Source: an uncultured Microthrixaceae bacterium (GTDB taxonomy: Bacteria; Actinomycetota; Acidimicrobiia; Acidimicrobiales; DATDAH01). From it: 64,000 nucleotides of DNA. The DNA is taken from assembly GCA_964470715.1 (NCBI GenBank), contig CAYYDZ010000001.1, positions 3,960 through 67,959 of the forward strand, given 5' to 3'. The notes below the pieces were generated by a model. The model had not been told where the DNA came from. It worked only from the letters and a program-made list of their open reading frames with translations, and ran no database searches. Both the position numbers and the translations under genes were made by a program. This document shows positions 3,541-64,000 of the stretch, one piece after another (positions within the stretch are counted from its first letter, which is position 1; each line of letters begins with the position of its first letter).

Positions 3541-5317
3541 TCGCTCGGTGACCCGCTGGACCACGTGTCGAACAAGGCCCGGTAGCGGCCCTCCTGGGCC
3601 ACGAGGTCGTCGTGGGTGCCGATCTCGGCGAGGCCGCCGGCATCGACCACGCCGACCCGGTCGGCGCGCTCGGCGGTCGACAGGCGGTGGGCGATGACGA
3701 TCACGGTGCGACCCGCCATCAGGCGGTCCATGGCGTGCTCGACCAGGGCCTCGGTGCCGGGGTCGAGGCTGGAGGTGGCCTCGTCGAGGACCAGGACCGC
3801 AGGGTCGGCCAGCGCGGCACGAGCCAGGGAGACGAGCTGCTTCTCACCCGCGGAGAGCCGTGAGCCCCGCTCGCGCACCTCGGTCTCCAGTCCGTCGGGC
3901 AAGGAGGCGAACCGGTCGAGCACCCCGATGGTCTCGAGGGCGGCCTCGACGTCGGCATCGGAGGCGCCCTGGCGCCCGATGCGCACGTTGTCCCGGATGG
4001 ATCCGGCGAACAGGAAGCCCTCCTGGGGCACCACCACGATGCGCCGGCGCAGCGAGCGCATCGTGGCGTCGCGCAGGTCGACCCCGGCGAAGGTCACCCG
4101 ACCCCCGACGGGGTCGTACAAGCGCGAGCAGAGCTTGGCCAGCGTGGATTTTCCGGCGCCGGTGGGCCCGACCAGCGCCAAGCGCTCACCCGACGGGATG
4201 GTCAGGTCCACCGAGCGCAGCACGGGCGGGCCGTCGCCGTAGGCGAACGACACCCGGTCCACCACGAGGTCGCCCCGGGGTGCGAGGTCCACCGCCCCCG
4301 GACGCTCCTGCACCTCGACGGGCTCGTCGAGCACCTGGAACACCTTCTGGAGGCCGGCGCCGGCGGACTGCACGGTGTTGAAGAGCTGGCTCAACTGCTG
4401 CACCGGCTCGAAGAGGTTGGAGAGGGTGAGGACGAAGAAGGTGACGGTCCCGATGGTGACCGTGCCCTGGCTGACCAGCCAGCCGCCGACGCCGACCACC
4501 GCCGCAGTGGTGCCGATGCCGGCGAACTCGATGACGGGGAGGTACCAGGCCTGCACCTTCACCGACTGCATGTGGGCGTCGTAGAGCACCCGGTTGCGCT
4601 CGGCGAAGCGGCGGGTCTCCGTGCGCTCACGGCCGAAGGCCTGGATGACCCGGACGCCGGCGATGGACTCCTGGAGGTTCGAGAGCGTGCCGCCGATCTG
4701 GTCGCGCACCACGAGGTACGCCTCGTTCGAATCCCGCTGGAACTTGATGCTGGCGAGCACCACGAAGGGCAGCGCGATCAGGCAGACGAGGGCGAGCTGC
4801 CATGAGACGACGACGAGCACCACGATCGACAGGACGAGCAGCAAGACGTTGCTCACGAACTGGAGCAGTCCCATCTGGACGAGCTCGGCCATGGAGTCGA
4901 TGTCCGAGGTCATGCGCGACACGACCACCCCGGCCTTCTCCCGGTCGTAGAAGGGCATCGACAACCGCTGGAGCTTGTCGAAGACCCGCAGGCGGAGGTC
5001 GCGCAGGAACGACTCGCCCACCTGGCTCACGACCCGCACCTGGGACCGGTACACCACGTAGGCGACGATCGCGACGAGGACGTAGGCGATCACCGCAGCG
5101 TTGAGGGCGGCGGCGTCGCCCGGCGTGATGCCCTGGTCGATGCCGTAGCGGACGAGCAGTGGCCCGGCCAGCGTGGTCAGGGTCCACACCACGAGCAGCC
5201 CGCACGCGCCCACGACCTGGCGGCGGTACGGCCCCAGCATCCGCCCGGCGCGCCGCAGGACCCGCTTGGCCGCCTCGGCGTCCAGGCGGTCGGCCTCGTC
5301 GACCCCGACCTCGTGCA

Positions 5318-5321
<4 letters not shown>
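3537..5321 (-). CDS. ABC exporter, fused permease/ATPase (MsbA/type I exporter-like), subunit B of a heterodimer
   Basis: 594-aa ORF with an N-terminal 6-TM region. Motifs: Walker A GPTGAGKST, signature LSAGEKQ, Walker B VLVLDEATS. Confidence 0.9.
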
Positions 5322-7156
<1,835 letters not shown>

Positions 7157-7774: not shown

Positions 7775-8278
7775 TCAGGGGGCGAAGCGCCCGTAGCCGC
7801 CCCGGTAGAAGATGAGGGGCAGGCCCTCGTTGGCGGCGTCGAGCTCGAGCACCCGGCCGATCACCACGAAGTGGTCGCCTTCGTCGTGCACCCGCTCGAT
7901 GGTGCAGTCGATGAAGCCCAGCACGTCGGCCAGCACCGGCGAGCCGGACGCACCGGGGCGGTACCCGACGCCGGCGAACTTGTCGTCGCTCTTGCTGGCC
8001 ATCACCCGGCAGACGTCCTCTTGTTCCGAGGACAAGATGTTGGCGCAGAAGCCACCCGACGCCTCGATCAAGGGCCAGCTCGATGAGGACTTCTGGGGGC
8101 AGAACAGGACCAACGGCGGATCGAGCGAGACCGACGAGAACGAGCCGATGGCCATGCCCACGGGCGCGCCCTCGTGCATCCCCGTGATCACCGTGACCCC
8201 CGTGGGGAAGTGGCCCAGGACGTTGCGGTAGTGGGCGGCGTCGATGCCCCCGGTGTCCGAGCTGGTGGGGTTGGTCAC
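7775..8278 (-). CDS. Flavin reductase family protein (FMN-binding split barrel)
   Basis: 167 aa. Contains HFPTGVTVITG...PVGMAIGSFSSVSLDPPLVLFC, the characteristic flavin reductase-like domain. Confidence 0.85.
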   Translation of the reverse strand: MTNPTSSDTGGIDAAHYRNVLGHFPTGVTVITGMHEGAPVGMAIGSFSSVSLDPPLVLFCPQKSSSSWPLIEASGGFCANILSSEQEDVCRVMASKSDDKFAGVGYRPGASGSPVLADVLGFIDCTIERVHDEGDHFVVIGRVLELDAANEGLPLIFYRGGYGRFAP

Positions 8279-8308
8279 GCTGGCTCCTCTTTCAGGGTCG
8301 CAGGCTGG

Positions 8309-8342
8309 GCGCTCACGGTCGTGGGCTCCTCGCTCACGGTCG
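8309..8342. promoter_or_regulatory. Direct 13-bp repeat pair upstream of the flavin reductase gene
   Basis: GCGCTCACGGTCG (8309-8321) and TCGCTCACGGTCG (8330-8342) are spaced 21 bp start-to-start, about two helical turns. They lie 31-64 nt upstream of the start at 8278. Confidence 0.25.
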
Positions 8343-8373
8343 CCGACTCGCCCTTGGTGGTCGGCGCCCGACC

Positions 8374-9234
8374 TTAGTGAGGAACGGCGACGGGCGACCC
8401 CAGCGAGACCGTGAGGCCCTCCTGGGCGCAGATCACCTCTTCGACCCGGTGGGCGTCCTCGAGGCCCCGCGCGTAGGCGGTGAGCTCATCGAGGGCGCCG
8501 TCGTGGTGGCCCGGGTCGTGGTGGAACAGCACCAGGCGCCGGGCGCCCGCCTCGGCGGCCACGTGGACGGCGTAGTCGATCGTGCAGTGCCCCCAGTGCG
8601 GCTTCTCGGTGAACTCGGCGCGAGTGAACTGCGAGTCGTGGATGAGCAGGTCCACCCCGTCACAGAGCTCGAGGACCGAGTCGGCGATCGCGAGGCTGCC
8701 GTCCAGCGGCTGCTGGTGGTCGCTGACGTAGGCGACGCTGACGCCCTCCCAGTCGATGCGATAGCCGTTCGTGAGCCCGACATGGGGAACCTGGCGGGCC
8801 CGGACCTTCGCATCGCCGACGGCGAAGTCCGCATCCACCACGTCGTGGAAGGTGACGTCGCCCTCGAGGTCGGCGATGCCCACAGGGAAGTACGGCGGAC
8901 ACATGAAGGTGTCGAAGGCGGCCTCGAGTTCGAGGCCGGGCTGCGACGGCCCGTAGATGTCGAGCCGGCTGCCCGAGCGGTGCAGCGGGGAGAAGAAGGG
9001 CAGGCCCTGGACGTGGTCCCAATGGAGGTGGGTGACGAGGGCCGCACCGCGGAAGGGCTCGCCGCCGTCGAAGGTCTCGCCCCAGAAGCGCAGGCCGGTG
9101 CCGAGGTCGAGGACGATGGGGTCGCCGCCGGGGGCGTCGAGGACGACGCACGCGGTGTTGCCGCCGTAGCGCTGGTTGGCGGCGCACGGGCACGGCGTGG
9201 AGCCGCGGACCCCGAAGAACGTGACGTTGAGCAG
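8374..9234 (-). CDS. MBL-fold metallo-hydrolase; start apparently non-canonical (CTG)
   Basis: Track ORF 8374..8904 is only the C-terminal part. The same frame upstream reads LLNVTFFGVRGSTPCP...VLDLGTGLRF...THLHWDHVQGLPFF (HxHxDH motif). An in-frame TAG lies at 9264-9262. No ATG, GTG or TTG occurs in frame before 8904. A strong GGAAGGGGGG lies just upstream of the CTG at 9234. Confidence 0.75.
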   Translation of the reverse strand: MLNVTFFGVRGSTPCPCAANQRYGGNTACVVLDAPGGDPIVLDLGTGLRFWGETFDGGEPFRGAALVTHLHWDHVQGLPFFSPLHRSGSRLDIYGPSQPGLELEAAFDTFMCPPYFPVGIADLEGDVTFHDVVDADFAVGDAKVRARQVPHVGLTNGYRIDWEGVSVAYVSDHQQPLDGSLAIADSVLELCDGVDLLIHDSQFTRAEFTEKPHWGHCTIDYAVHVAAEAGARRLVLFHHDPGHHDGALDELTAYARGLEDAHRVEEVICAQEGLTVSLGSPVAVPH

Positions 9235-9313
9235 CGCTTCCCCCCTTCCTCGGTGGAGAGCCTAACGAAGCCGACCGGCCCTCGGGACGCAGCCGCCGTG
9301 CCAAGCTCACGCG

Positions 9314-10180
9314 GTGGAACCTCGCACCGTCACCGTCCGCGGTACCGAACTCGCCTGTCTCGAGGCCGGCGAAGGCCCGCTCGCCCTCTGTCTGCACGGC
9401 TTCCCCGACACCGCCCGCACCTGGCGCCACCTCCTCCCCCGCCTCGCGGACGCCGGCTTCCACGCAGTGGCGCCGTTCAACCGTGGGTACGCGCCCTCTG
9501 CGGTGCCCGTCGACGGCTTCTTCCAGGCCGGTGCGTTGGCGGCCGACGCGAACGCGCTGCACGACGCCCTGGACGGCGACGGCGACGCCGTCGTCGTCGG
9601 CCACGACTGGGGGGCGGTGGCGGCCTACGGCGCCGCCGGCAGCGCCCCCGAGCGATGGCGCACGGTCGTCGGCCTGGCCGTTCCGCCCGCCAACGAGATG
9701 CTGGCCGCCTTCGTCGGGTACGACCAGCTGAAGCTGTCCTGGTACATGCACGTGTTCCAGAGCCCCTTGGCCGAGGTTCTGGTGCCCGGTGACGACTTCG
9801 CCTTCCTCGACCGCCTCTGGCAGGACTGGTCGCCCGGCTACGACGCCGCCGAGGACGTGGTTGCGGTCAAGGACGCGCTCCGCGGTCCGGGTCACGTCGC
9901 GGCGGCGCTGGGGATCTACCGGGCTGCCCTGGGCAACGCCCCGCTCGACCCCGACCTCGCGGCGGAGCAGGCGGCCTGCGGTGCGCTCCCGTCCCAGCCC
10001 ACGCTCTACCTCCACGGCGAGGACGATGGGTGCCTCGCGGTGGCCACTGCCCGGTCGAGCGAGTCCGCCTTCGATCGCCCGGGCTCGAGGTTCGAGGTCC
10101 TGGCCGACGTGGGCCACTTCCTGCACCTCGAGGCGCCCGACACCGTGAACGACCGCATCCTCTCCTTCCTCGCCGGCTGA
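9314..10180 (+). CDS. Alpha/beta hydrolase (epoxide-hydrolase-like fold)
   Basis: 288 aa with a GTG start. Contains LCLHGFPDTARTWRHLLPRLADAGFHAVAPFNRGY, HDWG and a C-terminal GHFLHLEAP. Confidence 0.85.
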   Translation: MEPRTVTVRGTELACLEAGEGPLALCLHGFPDTARTWRHLLPRLADAGFHAVAPFNRGYAPSAVPVDGFFQAGALAADANALHDALDGDGDAVVVGHDWGAVAAYGAAGSAPERWRTVVGLAVPPANEMLAAFVGYDQLKLSWYMHVFQSPLAEVLVPGDDFAFLDRLWQDWSPGYDAAEDVVAVKDALRGPGHVAAALGIYRAALGNAPLDPDLAAEQAACGALPSQPTLYLHGEDDGCLAVATARSSESAFDRPGSRFEVLADVGHFLHLEAPDTVNDRILSFLAG

Positions 10181-10261
10181 CCTCGCCGTGGCCCCGGGCG
10201 CGACGGCGCCCCGCCACCCGAGGGTGACGGGGCGCACCGGGCGCGTGTCGGCCGAGCAGTC

Positions 10262-10400
10262 TCAGCCGGCGGTGGTCGTGGTGGTCGCCCCGGCCGACGT
10301 GGTGGTGGTCGAACCACCCGCGGTCGTCGTGGTGGTCGACCCACCGTCGGTGGTCGTGGTGGTGTCGCCGCCGGCCGAGGTGGTGGAGGTGGTGTCCTCG
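10262..10400 (-). repeat. Degenerate roughly 30-bp tandem repeats encoding the Thr/Gly-rich tail of the ferritin-like lipoprotein
   Basis: GGTGGTCGTGGTGGTCG-type units recur, encoding TTSTTSAGGDTTTTTDGGSTTTTTAGGSTTTTSAGATTTTTAG. Confidence 0.6.
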
Positions 10401-11191
10401 ACTCCCACGAAGGCGTCCTCGGGGATGCGGTCGTCCACGGGTAGGAACGCCACCGGCACCTGCTCGGCGTTCTGGAACCCACGCAACACCGCCATGTGGC
10501 GGGCCTCGACGCCGCCGATGCCCATGATGGCCTGGCGCAGGGTGGTGGTGGAGAGCTGCCCCGCCGCCCAGGCGTAGGTCTCGGCCGCGGCGGTCTCGAG
10601 GGTCAGGGCCAGATCGATCACGCTGTCCTGGTCGGTGAGGTCGGCGAGGGCGGGGTCGATGACCGACTCCTGGAGGAAGCTGTTGGCCTCGGTGTACTCG
10701 GTGCCGCCCAGGTCGGTGGTGGCCTGCTGGAGGGCGCTGGCGTGGTCGTCGTGCTGGTCCCGGAAGAGCACCGCGGCGTCGACGACGTCCGGCGTGATCA
10801 CGAGACCCGAGTCGATGGCGGCCTGGTAGGTGTTCACCGCCAGGATCTCGAGCGACGTCGCGGTGCGCAGCAGGTCGAGGTCGAAGTCCGTGTCGGCCGG
10901 GTCCGCCGTGGTCGTGGTGGCGTCGTTCGGCGCGCCGCTCTCGGACACGTCGGGCACCGCCTCGCTGCCACAGGCGGCAAGGACTGCCGCGCCGAGGACC
11001 GTGGCCCCGCCGATCTTGAGGAACCCACGGCGCGACGGGACGCCGAGGAGCTGGGCCTTGGCCGACGACGGCAGGGCGTTGTCGCTGCCGAAGATGCGCA
11101 GCAGGGCCTCACGCCACGGGGCCATGGCGGCGTCGTGCTCGATGCGGGCCGCACGGAGCTGGCGGCGCACCTCGTCTCGGGAGTGGTTCAT
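10262..11191 (-). CDS. Tat-signal lipoprotein with ferritin-like (Ferritin_2-type) domain and Thr/Gly-rich C-terminal tail
   Basis: Lies within track ORF 10262..11581. Start taken at ATG 11191 (MNHSRDEV) with GAGAGGAA upstream. Twin-arginine motif SRRGFLKIGG is followed by lipobox LAAC. Ferritin-like blocks: LDLLRTATSLEILAVNTYQAAI, FRDQHDDHASAL, LALTLETAAAETY, GVEARHMAVL. The tail is (G)GSTTTTT repeated. Confidence 0.75.
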   Translation of the reverse strand: MNHSRDEVRRQLRAARIEHDAAMAPWREALLRIFGSDNALPSSAKAQLLGVPSRRGFLKIGGATVLGAAVLAACGSEAVPDVSESGAPNDATTTTADPADTDFDLDLLRTATSLEILAVNTYQAAIDSGLVITPDVVDAAVLFRDQHDDHASALQQATTDLGGTEYTEANSFLQESVIDPALADLTDQDSVIDLALTLETAAAETYAWAAGQLSTTTLRQAIMGIGGVEARHMAVLRGFQNAEQVPVAFLPVDDRIPEDAFVGVEDTTSTTSAGGDTTTTTDGGSTTTTTAGGSTTTTSAGATTTTTAG

Positions 11192-11219
11192 GGGTCGCGT
11201 TCCTCTCGTCTCGGGGCGG

Positions 11220-11948
11220 CTAGCTGTTGACCGGGTAGTCGGTCGGGCTGAGCGCGCCGTCCTGGCCCTGGAAGGTGGGGACGTACTGGTCGAGGTCCTG
11301 GCCGAGGGCCTGGCCGAGCACCACCGCGTGCTGCGACTCGATGGGCAGGATGGTCGCCACCGCGAGGGCGGCGTCCCGGTCCTGGAGGATGCCGAGGCTG
11401 TAGAAGTAGGTCGACGCCGCACCGTTCTCGAGGTCCTGTGCGATCTGGAGCAGCGCGGCCTGGTCGGCGGCGTCGGCGATCTGGGGACCGAACACGTCGA
11501 GGACCGCCTGGTTGGCCTCATCCGTGGCCGCCTCACCGGCGACGCCGGCGAAGGCCGCGGCGTGCTCGTCGTGGTGGCCACGGAAGATCTCGGCCACGTC
11601 GACGACCGACCCGTCGAGCAGGCCCGACTCGATGGCTGCGGTGTAAGCCTCCACGGCGGCCAGCTCGACGCTCTGGGCGAAGGCGGCGAGGTCGGCGTCG
11701 TCCAGCGTCTCCTGCGCCCAGGCCGCCGGCAGGAGCCGCGAGACCGGCACGAGGGTCGACCCGAGGGTCAGTGCCGCGCCGCCGAGGCCCGCGTTGCGCA
11801 GGAACCGGCGGCGACTACCGGCCAACACGCGGCTCGTCTCACCGAAGTGCACCTCGCGCAGGTCCTCGTGGATCGTGGCCATGGCCTCGTGGTGCTGGTC
11901 GTCGACGTCGGCGGCCAGCTGCCGCAACGCCCGCGTGGTGATCTCCAC
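11220..11948 (-). CDS. Tat-signal ferritin-like (Ferritin_2-type) domain protein, paralog of the downstream gene
   Basis: 242 aa. GTG start at 11948 with AAGGAG 6 nt upstream. Twin-arginine motif SRRRFLRNAGLGG, likely cleavage AWA-QE. Ferritin-like blocks: LAAFAQSVELAAVEAYTAAI, FRGHHDEHAAAF, IAQDLENGAASTY, IESQHAVVLG. Confidence 0.75.
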   Translation of the reverse strand: MEITTRALRQLAADVDDQHHEAMATIHEDLREVHFGETSRVLAGSRRRFLRNAGLGGAALTLGSTLVPVSRLLPAAWAQETLDDADLAAFAQSVELAAVEAYTAAIESGLLDGSVVDVAEIFRGHHDEHAAAFAGVAGEAATDEANQAVLDVFGPQIADAADQAALLQIAQDLENGAASTYFYSLGILQDRDAALAVATILPIESQHAVVLGQALGQDLDQYVPTFQGQDGALSPTDYPVNS

Positions 11949-11982
11949 TGACGGCTCCTTGTTCGGTGAATCGGTGGTCGTT

Positions 11983-11996
11983 CCACAGGGATCTTG
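11983..11996 (-). promoter_or_regulatory. Conserved upstream box (copy 1), 34 nt before the ferritin-like gene start
   Basis: The coding-strand sequence CAAGATCCCTGTGG is followed by GGAAC-containing sequence. See the paired box at 12569-12580. Confidence 0.35.
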
Positions 11997-12021
11997 TCGT
12001 TCGGGGACCCCCTGACGCCAA

Positions 12022-12060
12022 CAGGGCCGCCGATGGACACGTCGTCCAGCGGCGGCCCTG
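12022..12060 (-). terminator. Hairpin downstream of the cupredoxin gene
   Basis: CAGGGCCGCCG (12022-12032) pairs with CGGCGGCCCTG (12050-12060). An inner GGAC/GTCC pairing is also present. It begins 13 nt after the cupredoxin stop, and there is no U-tract. Confidence 0.5.
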
Positions 12061-12072
12061 CTGATCAGAGGC

Positions 12073-12531
12073 TCAGTCGGAGACGCTGACCGTGCCCGTC
12101 ATCTGCGGGTGGATGTTGCAGTGGTAGGTGAACTCGCCGGCCTCGTCGAAGGTCTGCTCGAAGGTGGCACCGCTGTCCAGGTTGCCCGAGTCGAACGAGT
12201 CGTCGTCGGCGGTCACGGTGTGGGCGAAGCCGTCCTCGTTGGTCCACGTCACCGCGTCCCCGACGGTGATCGAGATGGGATCGGGGTCGAAGGCGAAGTC
12301 CGAGATCACCGGGGCGGTCGCCTCGGCGGGGGCGTCCGATGGAGCGTCGGCGGACGTCGTGTCGGTGGTGTCGCCGTAGTCCGTGCCGCTGTCGGCCGCG
12401 GACGTCGCCGTGGTGTCACCCGAGCTGGACTCGTCGCTGTCGCTGTCGCTGCCGCACGCGGCCGTGCCGAACACCAGCAGGCCTGTCGCTGCGAACGCGA
12501 GCAGGCGCACCTTCATGGATCGCTTCACCAT
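12073..12531 (-). CDS. Cupredoxin (plastocyanin/amicyanin-like blue copper) lipoprotein
   Basis: 152 aa. Signal peptide with lipobox (FGTAAC) and a Ser/Asp/Thr-rich linker. The copper-binding domain reads ITVGDAVTWTNEDGFAHTV...YHCNIHPQMTGTVSV, carrying the H, C, H and M ligands. Confidence 0.8.
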   Translation of the reverse strand: MVKRSMKVRLLAFAATGLLVFGTAACGSDSDSDESSSGDTTATSAADSGTDYGDTTDTTSADAPSDAPAEATAPVISDFAFDPDPISITVGDAVTWTNEDGFAHTVTADDDSFDSGNLDSGATFEQTFDEAGEFTYHCNIHPQMTGTVSVSD

Positions 12532-12568
12532 CTGGATTCCCCCGTTGTTGGTTGGGACGTGCCGGTCA

Positions 12569-12580
12569 CCACAGATCTTG
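12569..12580 (-). promoter_or_regulatory. Conserved upstream box (copy 2), 37 nt before the cupredoxin gene start
   Basis: The coding-strand sequence is CAAGATCTGTGG. The downstream 5' regions of the two genes also resemble each other (..GACC..CAC...CC.AAC.A..GG purine-rich SD). Confidence 0.35.
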
Positions 12581-12586
12581 CCTCGC

Positions 12587-13516
12587 TCAGGAGGTGGATG
12601 TGGCGTCGATCCCCTCCGGGCGCAGTGCGCCGCTCACCAGAGGTGCCGACGTGGGTCGGTCGGCGCCGCCCCGGGTCTCGCTGGTGATGGCCAATGCGGT
12701 CATCGGGTCTTCGACCTTGAAGGCCACGACGCCCGGCTCCGGTCCCAGCACGCCGAGCGAGACCGCCCGGCGGTCGGTGAGGCCCCAGAGCTGGTAGGTC
12801 GAACCCACCCCCGCAGCGGGGAGGTTGCCGCCCAGCAGGTACCCGGTGCCCTCCTCGGTGACCACCGCCCGCATCACGAGCTGGCCGTCGCCGGAGGAGA
12901 GCCGCACCACCGTCGAGTCCGGGTCGGCGAGGGCGGCACCCGCGGAGCGCTGGTCGCGACCCGCAGCGACCTGCGCGGCCAAGTCGTCGACCCGTTCCTG
13001 TTGGTGGCGGAAGGTGAGGACGCCGACGGTGCCGGCGAGCAGCACGCAGGCGGCCGCCGCGGCCACCACGATCGCAGCGGGCCCGGGACGCCGGCGGGGG
13101 TGGCTGCGGCGCCCGCCGGCGGGGAAGGCCACCACCTCGGGCCCGGTTCGATCGGTGCGGTCGGTGCGGTCGGTGCGCTCGGTTCGCTCGCCGACGCTCG
13201 ACGTCGGGGCAGCGGCCGACCCCGAGCCGTTCCGCGACGCGGGGGCGTCGAAGGCGAAGGGCGCCTCAGCTCCCCGGTCGGTCCGCTCGGGCTCGTCGAG
13301 GGAGGCGGCGATGCGGTCCCAGAGGCCGGCGGGTGCCGCCGCCCCGACGTTGCCGAGGAGCGCAGCCACCGACCGGTGTTGCTCGACCTCCGCGCGGCAC
13401 TGCGGGCATTCGCGGAGGTGGTCCTCCACGGCTCGCGTCTCCTCGGGGTCGACCGCGTCGAGTGCATACGCGCCCAACAGGGCACGAAGCTCGTCGTGGC
13501 GTGGATCGTCCGTCAT
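12587..13516 (-). CDS. Anti-sigma factor, zinc-finger (ZAS) N-terminus with RskA-like extracytoplasmic domain
   Basis: 309 aa. Contains HLRECPQCRAEVEQH (HxxxCxxC), one TM segment (AAIVVAAAAACVLLAGTVGVL) and a C-terminal YQLWGL...ALAITSE block typical of anti-sigma-K. It overlaps the sigma gene by 4 bp. Confidence 0.85.
   Translation of the reverse strand: MTDDPRHDELRALLGAYALDAVDPEETRAVEDHLRECPQCRAEVEQHRSVAALLGNVGAAAPAGLWDRIAASLDEPERTDRGAEAPFAFDAPASRNGSGSAAAPTSSVGERTERTDRTDRTDRTGPEVVAFPAGGRRSHPRRRPGPAAIVVAAAAACVLLAGTVGVLTFRHQQERVDDLAAQVAAGRDQRSAGAALADPDSTVVRLSSGDGQLVMRAVVTEEGTGYLLGGNLPAAGVGSTYQLWGLTDRRAVSLGVLGPEPGVVAFKVEDPMTALAITSETRGGADRPTSAPLVSGALRPEGIDATSTS
13144..13188 (-). repeat. 9-bp tandem repeat x5 inside the anti-sigma factor linker
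   Basis: CGGTTCGAT CGGTGCGGT CGGTGCGGT CGGTGCGCT CGGTTCGCT, encoding ...ERTERTDRTDRTDRTG... on the minus strand. Confidence 0.7.
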
Positions 13517-14139
13517 GTGACCGCTCCGATGCCGAGTGCGTCGAGTGAGCCCCGCAGGCGGGACAACCCGCTCCGGATGCGGCCCTTCACCGTGCCCTCC
13601 GGTTCCCCCAGGATGCCTGCCACCTCCCGGTAGGTGTAGCCGCCGAAGTACGCCAACACGATGGCCGAGCGCTGTTCCTCCGGCAGGTCGCGCAGCGCGC
13701 CCCCGATCCGGTCGGAGACCTCGAGGTCCCAGACCTCACGCTCGAGGTCGTAGCCAGCGTCGACCGCCCGCCGGGCGTCGCGCTCCTCGCGTCGGCGCCG
13801 AGACTCTTCCGAGCGGATGACGTCGACCGAGCGGCCGTGGGATTGCGCCAACAGGAACGACCGCAGCGACCCCCGATCGGGGTCGAAGCGGTCGGGCTGG
13901 TTCCACAGTCGCAGGAAGATCTCCTGGACGACCTCCTCGGCGGCGGCGTCGTCGCCGAGCAGGCGCCGGGACAGCCCGTGCACCGCTCCACCGTGGCGAC
14001 GGTAGGCCTCCGCCAGGGCCGACTGCTCGTACCGGGCGATGGCGAAGACGAGTGCGGCGTCACCCATCTCGGTGAAGTCGGTCGGTGCCATCGGCTGCTG
14101 TTCGGAGCCACCCGCCTCGCCGGATCGCCCCATCCGCAC
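13513..14139 (-). CDS. ECF-type RNA polymerase sigma-70 family factor (SigK-like)
   Basis: 208-aa ORF. Region 2 reads VQEIFLRLW and region 4 reads AIVLAYFGGYTYREVAGILGEPEGTVKGRIRSGL. The start is ambiguous (GTG 14139, ATG 14133 or ATG 14091). Confidence 0.9.
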   Translation of the reverse strand: MRMGRSGEAGGSEQQPMAPTDFTEMGDAALVFAIARYEQSALAEAYRRHGGAVHGLSRRLLGDDAAAEEVVQEIFLRLWNQPDRFDPDRGSLRSFLLAQSHGRSVDVIRSEESRRRREERDARRAVDAGYDLEREVWDLEVSDRIGGALRDLPEEQRSAIVLAYFGGYTYREVAGILGEPEGTVKGRIRSGLSRLRGSLDALGIGAVT

Positions 14140-21690: not shown

Positions 21691-22383
21691 TCATCCGAGG
21701 TGGGCCCGGAGGAAGGACAGGGTGCGGGTGAAGGCCTCGTGGGCGGCGTCGGCGTCGTGGGCCGGCGAGGTCTCGTCGAAGAAGCCCGGGGCGGCGCCGT
21801 AGGTGAACACGTCGAGGGACAATTTGAGATGGCGGGCGGCGTCCTCGACCCGGCCCAGTTCACCCCGGCGATCCGGCATCCCGGCCAGGCCGTAGTGGGC
21901 CTCGACCGGTGTCTGCAGGGCGGACCAGCTGCCGGCGACGTCCTCGGCCAGCACGGGGGCATCCACCAGGACCAGGGCCCGCACGTCGTCCGGGCGCCCG
22001 GCGGCGAGCTCGAGGCCCACGTGACCCCCGCCGTCGCCCGACCCCAGCACGCCCACACCCTTGCCGTGGACCATCGGGTGCACCTCCGCGGCGGCGACCA
22101 CGCCGGCGAGGCGCTGCAGCAGCACTGGCACGTTGATGGCGAGCACCGCCCGTTCGCTGCCCGCTGGCACCACGAGATCCGGCGCCGCCGCGGTGAAGCC
22201 CTCGGCCGCGAAGCGCTCGCAGACGGCGACCGCGGCGGCGTCAGCGGCCAGCGCCGGGCCCAGGACGATCAGCGCCGGGCCGGCGCTCCCGTGCCCGGGC
22301 GTGGCCAGGTAGCCGTCGACGGGCGCGTCGCCGGCGTCGACCGCACCCCCGGTCCCTTCGCTCAGACGGACACGGCCGCCCAT
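21691..22383 (-). CDS. Dienelactone hydrolase family protein
   Basis: Lies within track ORF 21691..22485. Start at ATG 22383 (MGGRVRL). Contains DGYLATP...GPALIVL, AEGFTAAAPDL and a C-terminal ...AHEAFTRTLSFLRAHL. The nucleophile motif was not clearly seen. Confidence 0.65.
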   Translation of the reverse strand: MGGRVRLSEGTGGAVDAGDAPVDGYLATPGHGSAGPALIVLGPALAADAAAVAVCERFAAEGFTAAAPDLVVPAGSERAVLAINVPVLLQRLAGVVAAAEVHPMVHGKGVGVLGSGDGGGHVGLELAAGRPDDVRALVLVDAPVLAEDVAGSWSALQTPVEAHYGLAGMPDRRGELGRVEDAARHLKLSLDVFTYGAAPGFFDETSPAHDADAAHEAFTRTLSFLRAHLG

Positions 22384-63160: not shown

Positions 63161-63290
63161 GGATCGACCCTACGGCGGGTCCTGCGCGGCGGGCAGGGCC
63201 GAACGGCCCGTCTGCGACGCCCGTTGGTCACCGGCCCCGGGCGGGCGTGTGACACTGCGGGCCATGGCTGACACAGGGCAGGATCCCGGG

Positions 63291-64000
63291 ATGGCGGACG
63301 ATCCGTACGACGTCGTGGTCATCGGGGCGGGGTACGGCGGCGCCACCGCGGCCGCGCTCCTCGCCCATGCCGGGCGGCGGGTGGCCCTGGTGGAGAAGAC
63401 GCCCCGCGCCGGCGGGAAGACCCAGACGCTCGACCGCAAGGGCTATCGCTACGAGATGTTCGGGGCGGTGGGCATCCCCGCGGTCGACTCGCGCTTCCAC
63501 GAGCTCGTCGACGTGCTGGGACTGGACGACGTCGAGCTCCTCATCCCCGAGGGCGAGCAGGCGGCCGTGCGCTACCGGGCCCCGGACGGCGAGTGGCGCC
63601 TGCTGCGCAGCGAGCTGCGCCAGAGCGGCTCCGAGGCCGAGCTGGCCGAGTTGCAGCGCGTCTTCGGGGCCACCGACGACGACGTCGCCGCGCTCGGCAC
63701 CTTCTACCTCACCATGCTCGGGCTCACCGACGAGGAGGTCGCCGCCCTCGACGAGACGACCATGGCCGACTACATGGCGCCCTTCGGGCTCGCCCCGGGG
63801 CTGGCCTCGCAGATCTTCGCCACCCTCAACATGTTGTTCGTGGTCGCGGTCGACCGTCTCGCCGCCTCCGAGGCCGTCCTCGTGCTGCGCAACATGGTCC
63901 TGGGTGGCGCCGGCCGCTTCCACAAGGGCGGCTACGGGCGGGTGGCCGAGGCCTGCGCCGACCTCGTGGTCGAGCGCGGCGGCCGCTACCTGACGAGCAC
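63291..64000 (+). CDS. FAD/NAD(P)-binding oxidoreductase, phytoene desaturase (CrtI)-like; 3' end outside the window
   Basis: Absent from the track because there is no stop in the window. Translation from ATG 63291 (or 63264) gives MADDPYDVVVIGAGYGGATAAALLAHAGRRVALVEKTPRAGGKTQTL..., a Rossmann GxGxxG motif. Confidence 0.8.
   Translation, partial: MADDPYDVVVIGAGYGGATAAALLAHAGRRVALVEKTPRAGGKTQTLDRKGYRYEMFGAVGIPAVDSRFHELVDVLGLDDVELLIPEGEQAAVRYRAPDGEWRLLRSELRQSGSEAELAELQRVFGATDDDVAALGTFYLTMLGLTDEEVAALDETTMADYMAPFGLAPGLASQIFATLNMLFVVAVDRLAASEAVLVLRNMVLGGAGRFHKGGYGRVAEACADLVVERGGRYLTS

Follow-up and report, generated by a model that had tools for sequence, protein, structure and literature searches.

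A SigK/RskA-associated locus encoding a cupredoxin lipoprotein and two Tat-signal ferritin-like proteins: a candidate extracytoplasmic redox module of the Acidimicrobiia

The mycobacterial sigma factor SigK, a member of the extracytoplasmic function (ECF) type, and its anti-sigma factor RskA have been studied for some 20 years on account of the antigens MPT70 and MPT83; to our knowledge, neither the inducing signal nor the function of this output is known. The published cassette has the order mpt83-sigK-rskA and carries a conserved SigK site (PMC7509140). The sigma factor of M. tuberculosis contains a Cys133-Cys183 redox switch (PMC7826278, PMC7509140), a cysteine pair that is found in 94% of ECF18 and 56% of ECF19 proteins (PMC7509140). 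Here we describe a related arrangement in a 64-kb stretch of Microthrixaceae DNA (hereafter the window, meaning the whole stretch analyzed; GC content ~72%), in which a sigK-like gene and rskA are followed by genes for a type-1 copper protein, or cupredoxin, and for two paralogous proteins of the Pfam family Ferritin_2, for which the names FerA and FerB are coined here. On balance, we lean toward reading these genes as a SigK/RskA-controlled extracytoplasmic redox module, in which a metal center in FerA/FerB would exchange electrons with the membrane-tethered cupredoxin.

The arrangement resembles mycobacterial SigK-RskA (ECF18/ECF19) in several respects. In both, an ECF sigma factor is translationally coupled to an anti-sigma factor of the zf-HC2/RskA type and is preceded by an apparently autoregulatory promoter, and in both the predicted regulon is a small set of exported proteins that includes a soluble protein and a lipoprotein as a paralogous pair. 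The outputs, however, are different: the fasciclin-domain proteins Mpt83 and Mpt70 and DipZ are replaced here by the cupredoxin and the two Ferritin_2 proteins. A gene for mpt83, a fasciclin lipoprotein, is not among the conserved neighbors, and the cupredoxin-ferAB operon occupies the target position. The same type of switch would therefore drive, across a bacterial class, a chemically more readable output, namely an electron carrier and two metal-center proteins, and may offer a tractable handle on the SigK signal, which most likely consists of redox or metal conditions in the envelope. If this is true, the substrate of the FerA/FerB module would reveal the signal logic of the SigK family.

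None of the protein families concerned is new, and envelope modules under ECF control are common; it is the combination, across the Acidimicrobiia, that appears to be new. A first annotation of the window (the original prediction) was aware of no described system with such a pairing, and the searched literature indeed holds no description of SigK/RskA combined with a tethered blue-copper protein and an obligate pair of His-substituted Ferritin_2 proteins that have conserved N-terminal extensions and signals for export by twin-arginine translocation (Tat).

The five-gene locus and its conservation

Five consecutive open reading frames (ORFs) on the minus strand span 10262-14139 in the order sigK, rskA, cupredoxin, ferA, ferB. 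The ORF calls agree in this with the first annotation, and hidden Markov model (HMM) searches of Pfam and NCBIfam upheld its family assignments for all five proteins. The sigK and rskA genes overlap by 4 bp, as had also been noticed (ATGA, 13516-13513), and the remaining gaps in this co-directional series measure 55 nt (rskA to cupredoxin), 124 nt (cupredoxin to ferA) and 28 nt (ferA to ferB), with a ribosome-binding site before each of the last three genes. The ferB ORF reaches back to 11581; its real start is taken to be the ATG at 11191, which has a GAGGA ribosome-binding site. Between ferB and a convergent alpha/beta-hydrolase gene (9314-10180, plus strand), the sequence contains a GC-rich hairpin of 13 bp (10205..10234, minus strand) that is probably a bidirectional terminator closing the unit. 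A scan of the region for sigma-70 promoters gave no match, and two terminator-like matches in the region are both intragenic. The nearest genome loci belong to Microthrixaceae metagenome-assembled genomes from activated sludge, with a FerA identity of 83-84%.

Conservation of the neighborhood was assessed in 80 loci of 16 kb that encode FerA relatives, taken from one-genome-per-species collections and nearly all labeled as Acidimicrobiia or, more broadly, as Actinomycetota. In each locus, relatives of the window's five proteins were mapped, and sigK-rskA was counted if a sigma factor at least 50% identical lay within 8 kb. The ferB gene directly follows ferA in 71 of the 72 loci with enough sequence, the lone exception being a split match; in 55 of 77 loci the gene immediately upstream of the pair, in the same orientation, encodes a cupredoxin, and sigK-rskA is found within 8 kb in 27 of 80. 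The last association takes four forms: upstream and divergent (13 loci), downstream on the opposite strand (8), upstream and co-directional, as in the clade of the window (5), and downstream and co-directional (1). The suggestion that the five genes form a conserved functional module thus finds support in the conserved neighborhood and in the shared promoter described below, but does not extend to the cupredoxin as a universal member. FerA plus FerB form the core; SigK/RskA recurs as their partner, and a cupredoxin is often, though not necessarily, the third component. All-against-all clustering of the ORFs in the 80 loci recovered no further gene conserved across the set.

The family extends well beyond these loci. 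An exhaustive HMM search for FerA relatives gave 2381 clusters at 50% identity with E <= 1e-3, and 240 with E <= 1e-30. Three divergent, short FerA relatives were looked up: all three are encoded in a Ferritin_2 pair and none with a cupredoxin, and in two of the three a divergent ECF sigma gene stands beside the pair, with RskA visible in one. A tblastn search with FerA found no match among 72,556 plasmids. By habitat, the family belongs to Acidimicrobiia of soil, sludge, lake, groundwater and sponge rather than to iron-oxidizing acidophiles.

SigK, RskA and the promoter signature

The sigK-like gene (13513..14091, minus strand; 192 codons, within a maximal ORF that begins at GTG 14139) encodes sigma regions 2 and 4 only, recognized in Pfam as Sigma70_r2 (residues 46-112, 1.3e-16) and Sigma70_r4_2 (residues 144-195, 9.8e-13). 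The protein scores 91 bits against TIGR02937 (cut-off 42.9), and its top NCBIfam model is SigK itself (PRK09646, 3.5e-48). It remains below the cut-off of that model (163.8 bits, against 226) and, unlike M. tuberculosis SigK, contains no cysteine in its translation; the Cys133-Cys183 redox switch therefore cannot operate, and control must go via RskA. The rskA gene (12587..13516, minus strand) has Pfam matches to zf-HC2, RskA_N and RskA_C (2.6e-14), and its product passes the NCBIfam anti-sigma equivalog NF052375 with 136 bits (cut-off 100). It combines an N-terminal HxxxCxxC (ZAS) anti-sigma domain (H33/C37/C40), a single transmembrane segment (residues ~147-169) and, outside the cytoplasm, the RskA_C domain, and has a weak PDB match in the M. 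tuberculosis anti-sigma chain 3hug_B.

An ECF-type promoter motif, (C/G)ATCC-N16-17-CG(T/A)A, was scanned for in all loci. It stands upstream of sigK in 26 of 27 loci, upstream of the cupredoxin gene in 32 of 54 and upstream of ferA in 4 of the 24 loci that have ferA as the first gene, at a background density of 0.05 matches/kb; variants with AATCC or GGTCC as the -35 element were seen by eye at several more loci. Where sigK and the cupredoxin gene are divergent, the intergenic region carries two copies, one directed toward each gene. The motif precedes the operon also at many loci with no sigK within 8 kb. Because it is common to sigK and the operon, even where sigK is not adjacent, the cupredoxin-ferAB operon is, by its in silico promoter signature, the direct output of an autoregulated SigK. 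Described SigK sites presumably resemble the CATCC ... CGAA/CGTA type seen here. Almost always, the -10 element is followed after 6-12 nt by an ATG or GTG, which opens a sigK ORF of ~190-196 codons or a cupredoxin ORF of 112-166 codons. From this spacing the transcripts should be leaderless, and the sigK mRNAs and most cupredoxin mRNAs of the related loci are probably leaderless or near-leaderless.

In the window, the SigK-type promoter lies at 14101..14126 on the minus strand (GATCC at 14126-14122, a 17-nt spacer, CGAA at 14104-14101), with the sigK ATG 10 nt downstream, so that the window's sigK transcript, too, is probably leaderless or nearly so. This cGATCC-N17-CGAA is the sole strict match to the motif in the region, and the same layout upstream of sigK is kept in the five closest relatives. 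It lies inside codons 1-16 of the longest possible sigK ORF (14089-14139, minus strand), and because a conserved promoter occupies 14126-14101 inside that ORF, translation of sigK probably starts at ATG 14091 rather than at GTG 14139. The sigK ORFs of the relatives, which measure 190-196 codons downstream of the motif, agree with the revised start. Since the five genes are co-directional, with the gaps and ribosome-binding sites given above, SigK can, to judge from the layout, drive all of them, and the window's link between SigK and the structural genes can be made by read-through from the sigK promoter.

The region between rskA and ferA has further features of its own. A CAAGATC motif is present twice on the minus strand, ~45 nt upstream of the cupredoxin start (12574..12580), where it is conserved in place in loci L002-L005, and ~45 nt upstream of the ferA start (11990..11996), where an AAGGAG ribosome-binding site follows; upstream of ferA, the window and L001-L005 all keep the form CGACA(A/T)GATCC. 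This motif may be closer to a sigma-A-type -10 element (CAAGAT) than to a SigK site. The CAAGATCC motif conserved upstream of ferA in the window's clade was considered as a SigK -35 element and set aside as unproven, its distance to a CG(A/T/C)(A/T) -10 element varying from 9 to 19 nt among close relatives. Directly after the cupredoxin stop codon, RNA folding predicts a long GC-rich stem-loop (12006..12072, minus strand): the 127-nt cupredoxin-ferA spacer folds at -64 kcal/mol (z = -3.9), and none of 200 shuffles was equally stable. Each of L001-L005 has its own hairpin at the same position, and RNAalifold on the spacers of six relatives aligned these hairpins poorly and gave no covariation that could be claimed. 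The stem-loop may act as a terminator, an attenuator or an mRNA-stabilizing hairpin. Both it and the pair of CAAGATC motifs are conserved in the window's own Microthrixaceae clade alone (L001-L005). Most loci have a short cupredoxin-ferA spacer and strong ribosome-binding sites, and start/stop overlaps of ferA and ferB occur in divergent homologues, all of which indicates co-expression.

The strong hairpin between the cupredoxin gene and ferA, and the fact that no strict SigK motif stands directly upstream of either gene in the window, would suit the explanation that the five genes are mere neighbors with no functional link. But their association is kept in four gene orders, the promoter motif is shared, and conservation of the flanking genes does not reach past the local clade; the comparative data largely refute this explanation, and we regard it as very improbable. 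Two relaxed matches to the motif occur elsewhere in the window, at 21867-21906 and 63279-63319 (both plus strand; GATCC-N16/17-CGTA), which at ~0.05/kb may be due to chance.

A predicted tethered electron carrier and a putative variant metal site

The cupredoxin gene (12073..12531, minus strand) encodes a type-1 copper lipoprotein of 152 residues with a match to Pfam Copper-bind (4.8e-11), which places it in the plastocyanin/azurin family of copper proteins. The lipobox and the complete H/C/H/M copper site recognized in the first annotation are both present: Cys26 (TAAC) is followed by an acidic Ser/Asp/Thr linker, and the ligands, which align with those of amicyanin and the NirK donor domain, are H104, C138, H141 and M144 (YHCNIHPQM), with an amicyanin-type C-x2-H-x2-M loop. 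Matches in the PDB are the C-terminal cupredoxin domain of the three-domain NirK 9cck (1.1e-20), the Nitrosopumilus blue-copper protein 5fc9 and amicyanins, and the protein falls under the amicyanin, plastocyanin and halocyanin equivalog cut-offs, which leaves it in no named subfamily. Its nearest relatives, amicyanin and the NirK donor domain, have the same C-x2-H-x2-M loop, and so do 55 of 56 orthologues; a lipobox is found in 44 of these 56, and most of the others have a membrane anchor. These closest solved relatives are dedicated to electron transfer, which counts in favor of the same role here, and the cupredoxin is, by its predicted features, a membrane-tethered electron-transfer protein.

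Small type-1 copper proteins work for extracytoplasmic redox enzymes in other systems: pseudoazurin or azurin is the electron donor of periplasmic cytochrome c peroxidase, and amicyanin and the tethered cupredoxin domain of NirK 9cck are further cases. The locus described here provides a ferritin-like partner instead of a heme or copper enzyme, and its cupredoxin has a lipid anchor; some relatives have it fused to a protein with four transmembrane segments (four-TM protein).

FerA (242 residues; 11220..11948, minus strand) and FerB (309 residues; 10262..11191, minus strand) match Ferritin_2 (PF13668) at 52.2 bits (8.8e-14) and 69.5 bits (4.2e-19), respectively, with a cut-off of 24.7. They are 35% identical to each other (E = 6e-15), in keeping with the view that they are paralogues. 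AlphaFold 2 (AF2) models have a mean predicted local distance difference test (pLDDT) score of 82 for FerA and 81.5 for FerB, with a high-confidence four-helix bundle in both. Sequence searches of both proteins against PDB chains returned nothing significant. A profile search placed a marginal match to the tardigrade protein RvFeMP-1 on top, and otherwise gave only similarity between the Tat signal and Rieske proteins. The PDB fold matches of FerA are generic (Rv2844, Dps, mini-bacterioferritin), and that of FerB is headed by RvFeMP-1 (8w9k; E = 1.3e-3, 22% identity).

The putative metal site is unusual. Among 61 aligned FerA sequences, E95, H125, H126, H129, E174, E204, H207, Y102 and Y181 are invariant; among 53 FerB sequences, E115, H147, H150, E199 and R231 of the bundle are invariant, and E229 and H232 are conserved in at least 90%. 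The candidate ligands of FerA are E95 on helix A, H126 and H129 on helix B, E174 on helix C, and E204 and H207 on helix D; those of FerB are, in the same order, E115, H147 and H150, E199, and E229 and H232. A Tyr is found at Glu+7 twice in each protein, counted from the Glu of helix A and from that of helix C (Y102 and Y181; Y122 and Y206). Both paralogues thus present the variant pattern E / HxxH / E / ExxH, with three His and three Glu, in place of the canonical E / (H)ExxH / E / ExxH. Helix B reads HHxxH in FerA and QHxxH in FerB, where canonical Ferritin_2 has HExxH, so that an invariant His stands in for the usual bridging Glu. Di-iron carboxylate oxidoreductases bind two Fe by paired ExxH motifs and paired bridging carboxylates; of these, a single ExxH, on helix D, and a single candidate for the bridging Glu are kept. 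A bundle with ligands on all four helices, the helix-D ExxH and the Tyr at helix-A Glu+7 are features that FerA and FerB have in common with the bacterioferritin ferroxidase center, rubrerythrin and Mn catalase. They differ from these di-iron and di-manganese carboxylate proteins in the HxxH, not ExxH, of helix B, in surface export and in the lack of a rubredoxin domain and of a cage, and their fold matches to them are generic only. FerA and FerB represent a distinct, widely distributed Ferritin_2 clade, in which the putative metal site is altered and an unusual, conserved extension precedes the Tat motif, in a family with only one biochemical study.

Tat export is typical of the PhoD and PhoX phosphatases, and FerA and FerB could, similarly, be exported metallophosphatases, with the cupredoxin unrelated or only tuning the redox state of the metal. 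The only characterized PF13668 members, RvFeMP-1 and RvFeMP-2 of a tardigrade and DRB0118 of Deinococcus, were shown by a 2024 study to act as Zn/Mg metabolite phosphatases (PDB 8kce, 8w9k; PMC11616004); PF13668 is thus no longer a wholly uncharacterized family, and the original prediction's statement that bacterial Tat-signal Ferritin_2 proteins have no established function needs to be qualified. RvFeMP-1 is, moreover, the best PDB fold match of FerB and the top profile match. The characterized proteins belong to the same Pfam family, form a four-helix bundle, have signals for secretion and occur as dimers. The ligands for Zn and Mg in RvFeMP-1 are E51, E90, H93, E132, D135 and D162 (PMC11616004). 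In FerA and FerB, E90 is replaced by the invariant His (H126 and H147), D135 by a near-invariant Ala (A177 and A202) and D162 by Glu; with two of the six ligands lost, metabolite phosphatase activity is unlikely to carry over unchanged. The IgG-like domain is absent as well, and the clade differs further in its Tat signals with a long N-terminal extension, its obligate paralogue pair, its ECF control and its cupredoxin partner. Control by an ECF envelope sigma factor, an electron-transfer copper protein co-operonic in 71% of loci and the absence of conserved phosphate-uptake or Pho genes from the 80-locus ORF clustering all speak against a phosphatase, and we consider this explanation unlikely.

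A role in metal handling is a further alternative. The iron systems EfeUOB and FtrABCD combine cupredoxins with Tat-exported enzymes, and some Acidimicrobiia oxidize iron. FerA and FerB might accordingly form an extracytoplasmic ferroxidase, or a buffer or chaperone for Mn, Fe or Cu, with the cupredoxin removing electrons from Fe(II)/Cu(I) oxidation, in metal-stress defense or iron acquisition. The site is ferritin-like and His-rich, and the Tyr at Glu+7 (FerA Y102, FerB Y122) is of ferroxidase style. However, no permease or transporter gene is conserved in the neighborhood by the same clustering, the family is spread over the Acidimicrobiia of the habitats named above rather than over iron-oxidizing acidophiles, and cage-forming features are lacking, the Dps and Bfr fold matches being generic (E >= 0.006). 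Metal handling is a possible role, but a rather unlikely one.

Both ferritin-like proteins carry the twin-arginine motifs first reported for them, and the signals are conserved across homologues. FerA has SRRRFLR, with a TIGR01409 score of 21.4 bits (cut-off 16.7) and an AWA-Q signal-peptidase site; FerB has SRRGFLK followed by the lipobox LAAC (Cys74), with a Pfam TAT_signal score of 16.6 bits that lies under the 22.7 cut-off. R46 is invariant and R47 conserved in at least 90% of the FerA homologues, and R54, R55 and C74 are invariant in those of FerB; Tat export of both proteins and lipidation of FerB are predicted from these signals. FerB is also, as had been proposed, a predicted lipoprotein with a long Thr-rich tail (10265..10405, minus strand). 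This tail comprises four tandem 9-residue units of about GG(S/D)TTTTT(A/D), with 23 Thr among the last 47 residues and a 27-nt period detected by Tandem Repeats Finder at 10266-10390; AF2 models it as four short beta-strands (pLDDT ~85). It is length-variable or absent among orthologues, and is probably O-glycosylated.

Ahead of their Tat motifs, both proteins have a long extension. That of FerA (45 residues; 11814..11948, minus strand) is net acidic, with H19, M23 and H34 at least 90% conserved, and that of FerB (52 residues; 11036..11191, minus strand) is net basic, with E7 and R10 invariant. AF2 models both as helix (pLDDT 83-95), and more divergent, shorter relatives are without them. Conserved n-regions of 45-52 residues are unusual for Tat signals. 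The FerB extension must be lost on lipoprotein maturation, and any function it has would therefore be exerted before export; such extensions might serve to dock a Tat proofreading chaperone, to bring the two precursors together or to regulate metal loading. Metalloproteins may be sorted by export route, as the Tat-exported Mn-cupin MncA and the Sec-exported Cu-cupin CucA illustrate. By analogy only, the copper protein of the window has a non-Tat, lipoprotein-type signal and the carboxylate/His proteins have Tat signals, which fits copper loading outside and Fe or Mn loading inside the cytoplasm. The analogy does not extend to all relatives, as some orthologous cupredoxins have RR-containing signal peptides.

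A soluble protein paired with a lipoprotein paralogue may also be taken at face value, as a non-catalytic envelope or surface pair like Mpt70/Mpt83. Its metal site would then serve a structural or a sensing purpose, for instance in feedback to the extracytoplasmic domain of RskA. Such a pair would mirror the outputs of mycobacterial SigK, one soluble and one a glycosylated lipoprotein paralogue (PMC7509140), and the association of sigK-rskA with ferAB persists without the cupredoxin. It is harder to reconcile with six metal-ligand-type residues and the second-shell Tyr, which are kept in both paralogues across ~40% identity and point to a functional metal center. Tat export, further, argues for cofactor loading before export, and the frequent operonic linkage to an electron carrier leads to the same view. 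A purely structural or sensory pair is in our estimation quite improbable.

Proposed mechanism and accessory observations

The redox module that we favor would work as follows. RskA would release SigK, which would transcribe its own operon from the (C/G)ATCC-N16-17-CG(T/A)A promoter. In the window, the sigK transcript would run on into the cupredoxin gene, ferA and ferB; in most relatives, SigK would use a separate promoter of the same type before the cupredoxin gene. The cupredoxin would be exported, lipid-anchored and loaded with copper outside the cytoplasm, and FerA (soluble) and FerB (lipid-anchored) would fold and take up metal in the cytoplasm and then cross by Tat, a division suggested by their Tat signals and by the non-Tat signal of the cupredoxin in the window. 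FerA and FerB would probably form a heterodimer, held at the membrane by the lipid anchor of FerB, as the paired genes, the translational coupling and the dimeric nature of the characterized relatives suggest (PMC11616004). At the outer face of the membrane, their center would exchange electrons with the type-1 copper protein, a step proposed because that protein is co-operonic. Of this scheme, the gene content, the export signals, the conserved module and the common promoter are established in silico, whereas the heterodimer, the identity of the metal, the electron transfer, the direction of the reaction and the substrate are inferred. For the specific reaction, a tentative proposal, on the doubtful side, is the reduction of peroxide or another oxidant by electrons that the cupredoxin delivers; it is favored by analogy with rubrerythrin, whose peroxidase activity draws on a small electron-transfer protein, and with the periplasmic pairs of cytochrome c peroxidase and pseudoazurin, of which it would be an actinobacterial equivalent with a site like that of rubrerythrin. 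The activity put forward in the original prediction, a surface di-metal oxidase or peroxidase supplied by a cupredoxin, likewise stays a proposal. A candidate extracytoplasmic redox system would thereby be added for the Actinomycetota.

Several points weigh against this redox module. Some 29% of loci have no cupredoxin adjoining ferAB, and FerAB can therefore work without an adjacent cupredoxin. The substitution of His for the bridging Glu gives an unusual site, of which the sequence reveals neither the nuclearity nor the metal. The only characterized PF13668 members are phosphatases, not redox enzymes (PMC11616004), and the locus encodes no respiratory partner. Additionally, no strict SigK-type promoter directly precedes the cupredoxin gene or ferA in the window, and given this, the stable hairpin and the CAAGAT-like motif before both genes, their expression in the window organism may be partly SigK-independent.

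A more ambitious form of the same idea would make FerA/FerB an unrecognized class of Tat-exported, heterodimeric, His-substituted ferritin-like metalloenzymes, acting at the outer face of the membrane in an electron chain with the tethered blue-copper protein and, in some lineages, a four-TM partner, with the pre-Tat helices as an export or assembly checkpoint. We hold this to be plausible, if somewhat unlikely as a whole.

The four-TM protein is a family of ~135 residues with no Pfam match and the motif GGxxHLxLYxxGYR ... NLGRSFLLN ... SR ... GIFGFTE. It is not encoded within the window, and is present in 12 of the 80 loci. L017, L052, L058 and L059 encode it as an N-terminal fusion to the cupredoxin (L017:7181-7969; L059:1942-2934); in L039, L043, L057, L073, L085 and L086 its gene directly follows ferB (L057:9596-10012; L085:5001-5408; L086:5001-5462); L021, L028 and L033 have the gene downstream of rskA and in the same orientation; and in L036 it is divergent from the cupredoxin gene, with its own SigK-type promoter (L036:7035-7451, minus strand). 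A homologue search with this protein returned 244 relatives, and the few that are named belong to the Acidimicrobiales. It is possible that the four-TM protein is the membrane entry point for electrons. In a further locus, L084 (4611-6830), a cupredoxin gene and a four-TM gene stand directly upstream of two vanadium-chloroperoxidase-like genes (VCPO_N, VCPO_2nd) and not of ferAB, which suggests that the cupredoxin/four-TM unit can serve different extracytoplasmic enzymes. This association, a single case, also hints at peroxide chemistry.

Genes for YdjC, PIG-L, SCP2 and glycerol kinase or glycerol metabolism, among other recurrent neighbors, were considered as further parts of the module and rejected; they represent local synteny in 16-23 of the 80 loci and are absent from the window. 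YdjC, SCP2 and PIG-L (an MshB/Mca-like deacetylase) flank the Ferritin_2 pair in 20-23 of the 80 loci (clusters 6, 10 and 12; for example L081:298-1131 and 4596-5895, and L082:2438-3271 and 4637-5889); this, too, is taken as synteny, though a link to mycothiol or cell-envelope sugar metabolism is conceivable. Finally, some genomes contain a second FerA-FerB tandem pair, a second cupredoxin gene downstream of ferB, or an extra FerB-like gene. Duplicated parts are located at L013:6139-7402 and 8001-9643, L037:9868-10269, L041:1985-2380, L055:9935-10276 and L051:9797-10252, and these extra copies point to an ongoing duplication of parts of the module.

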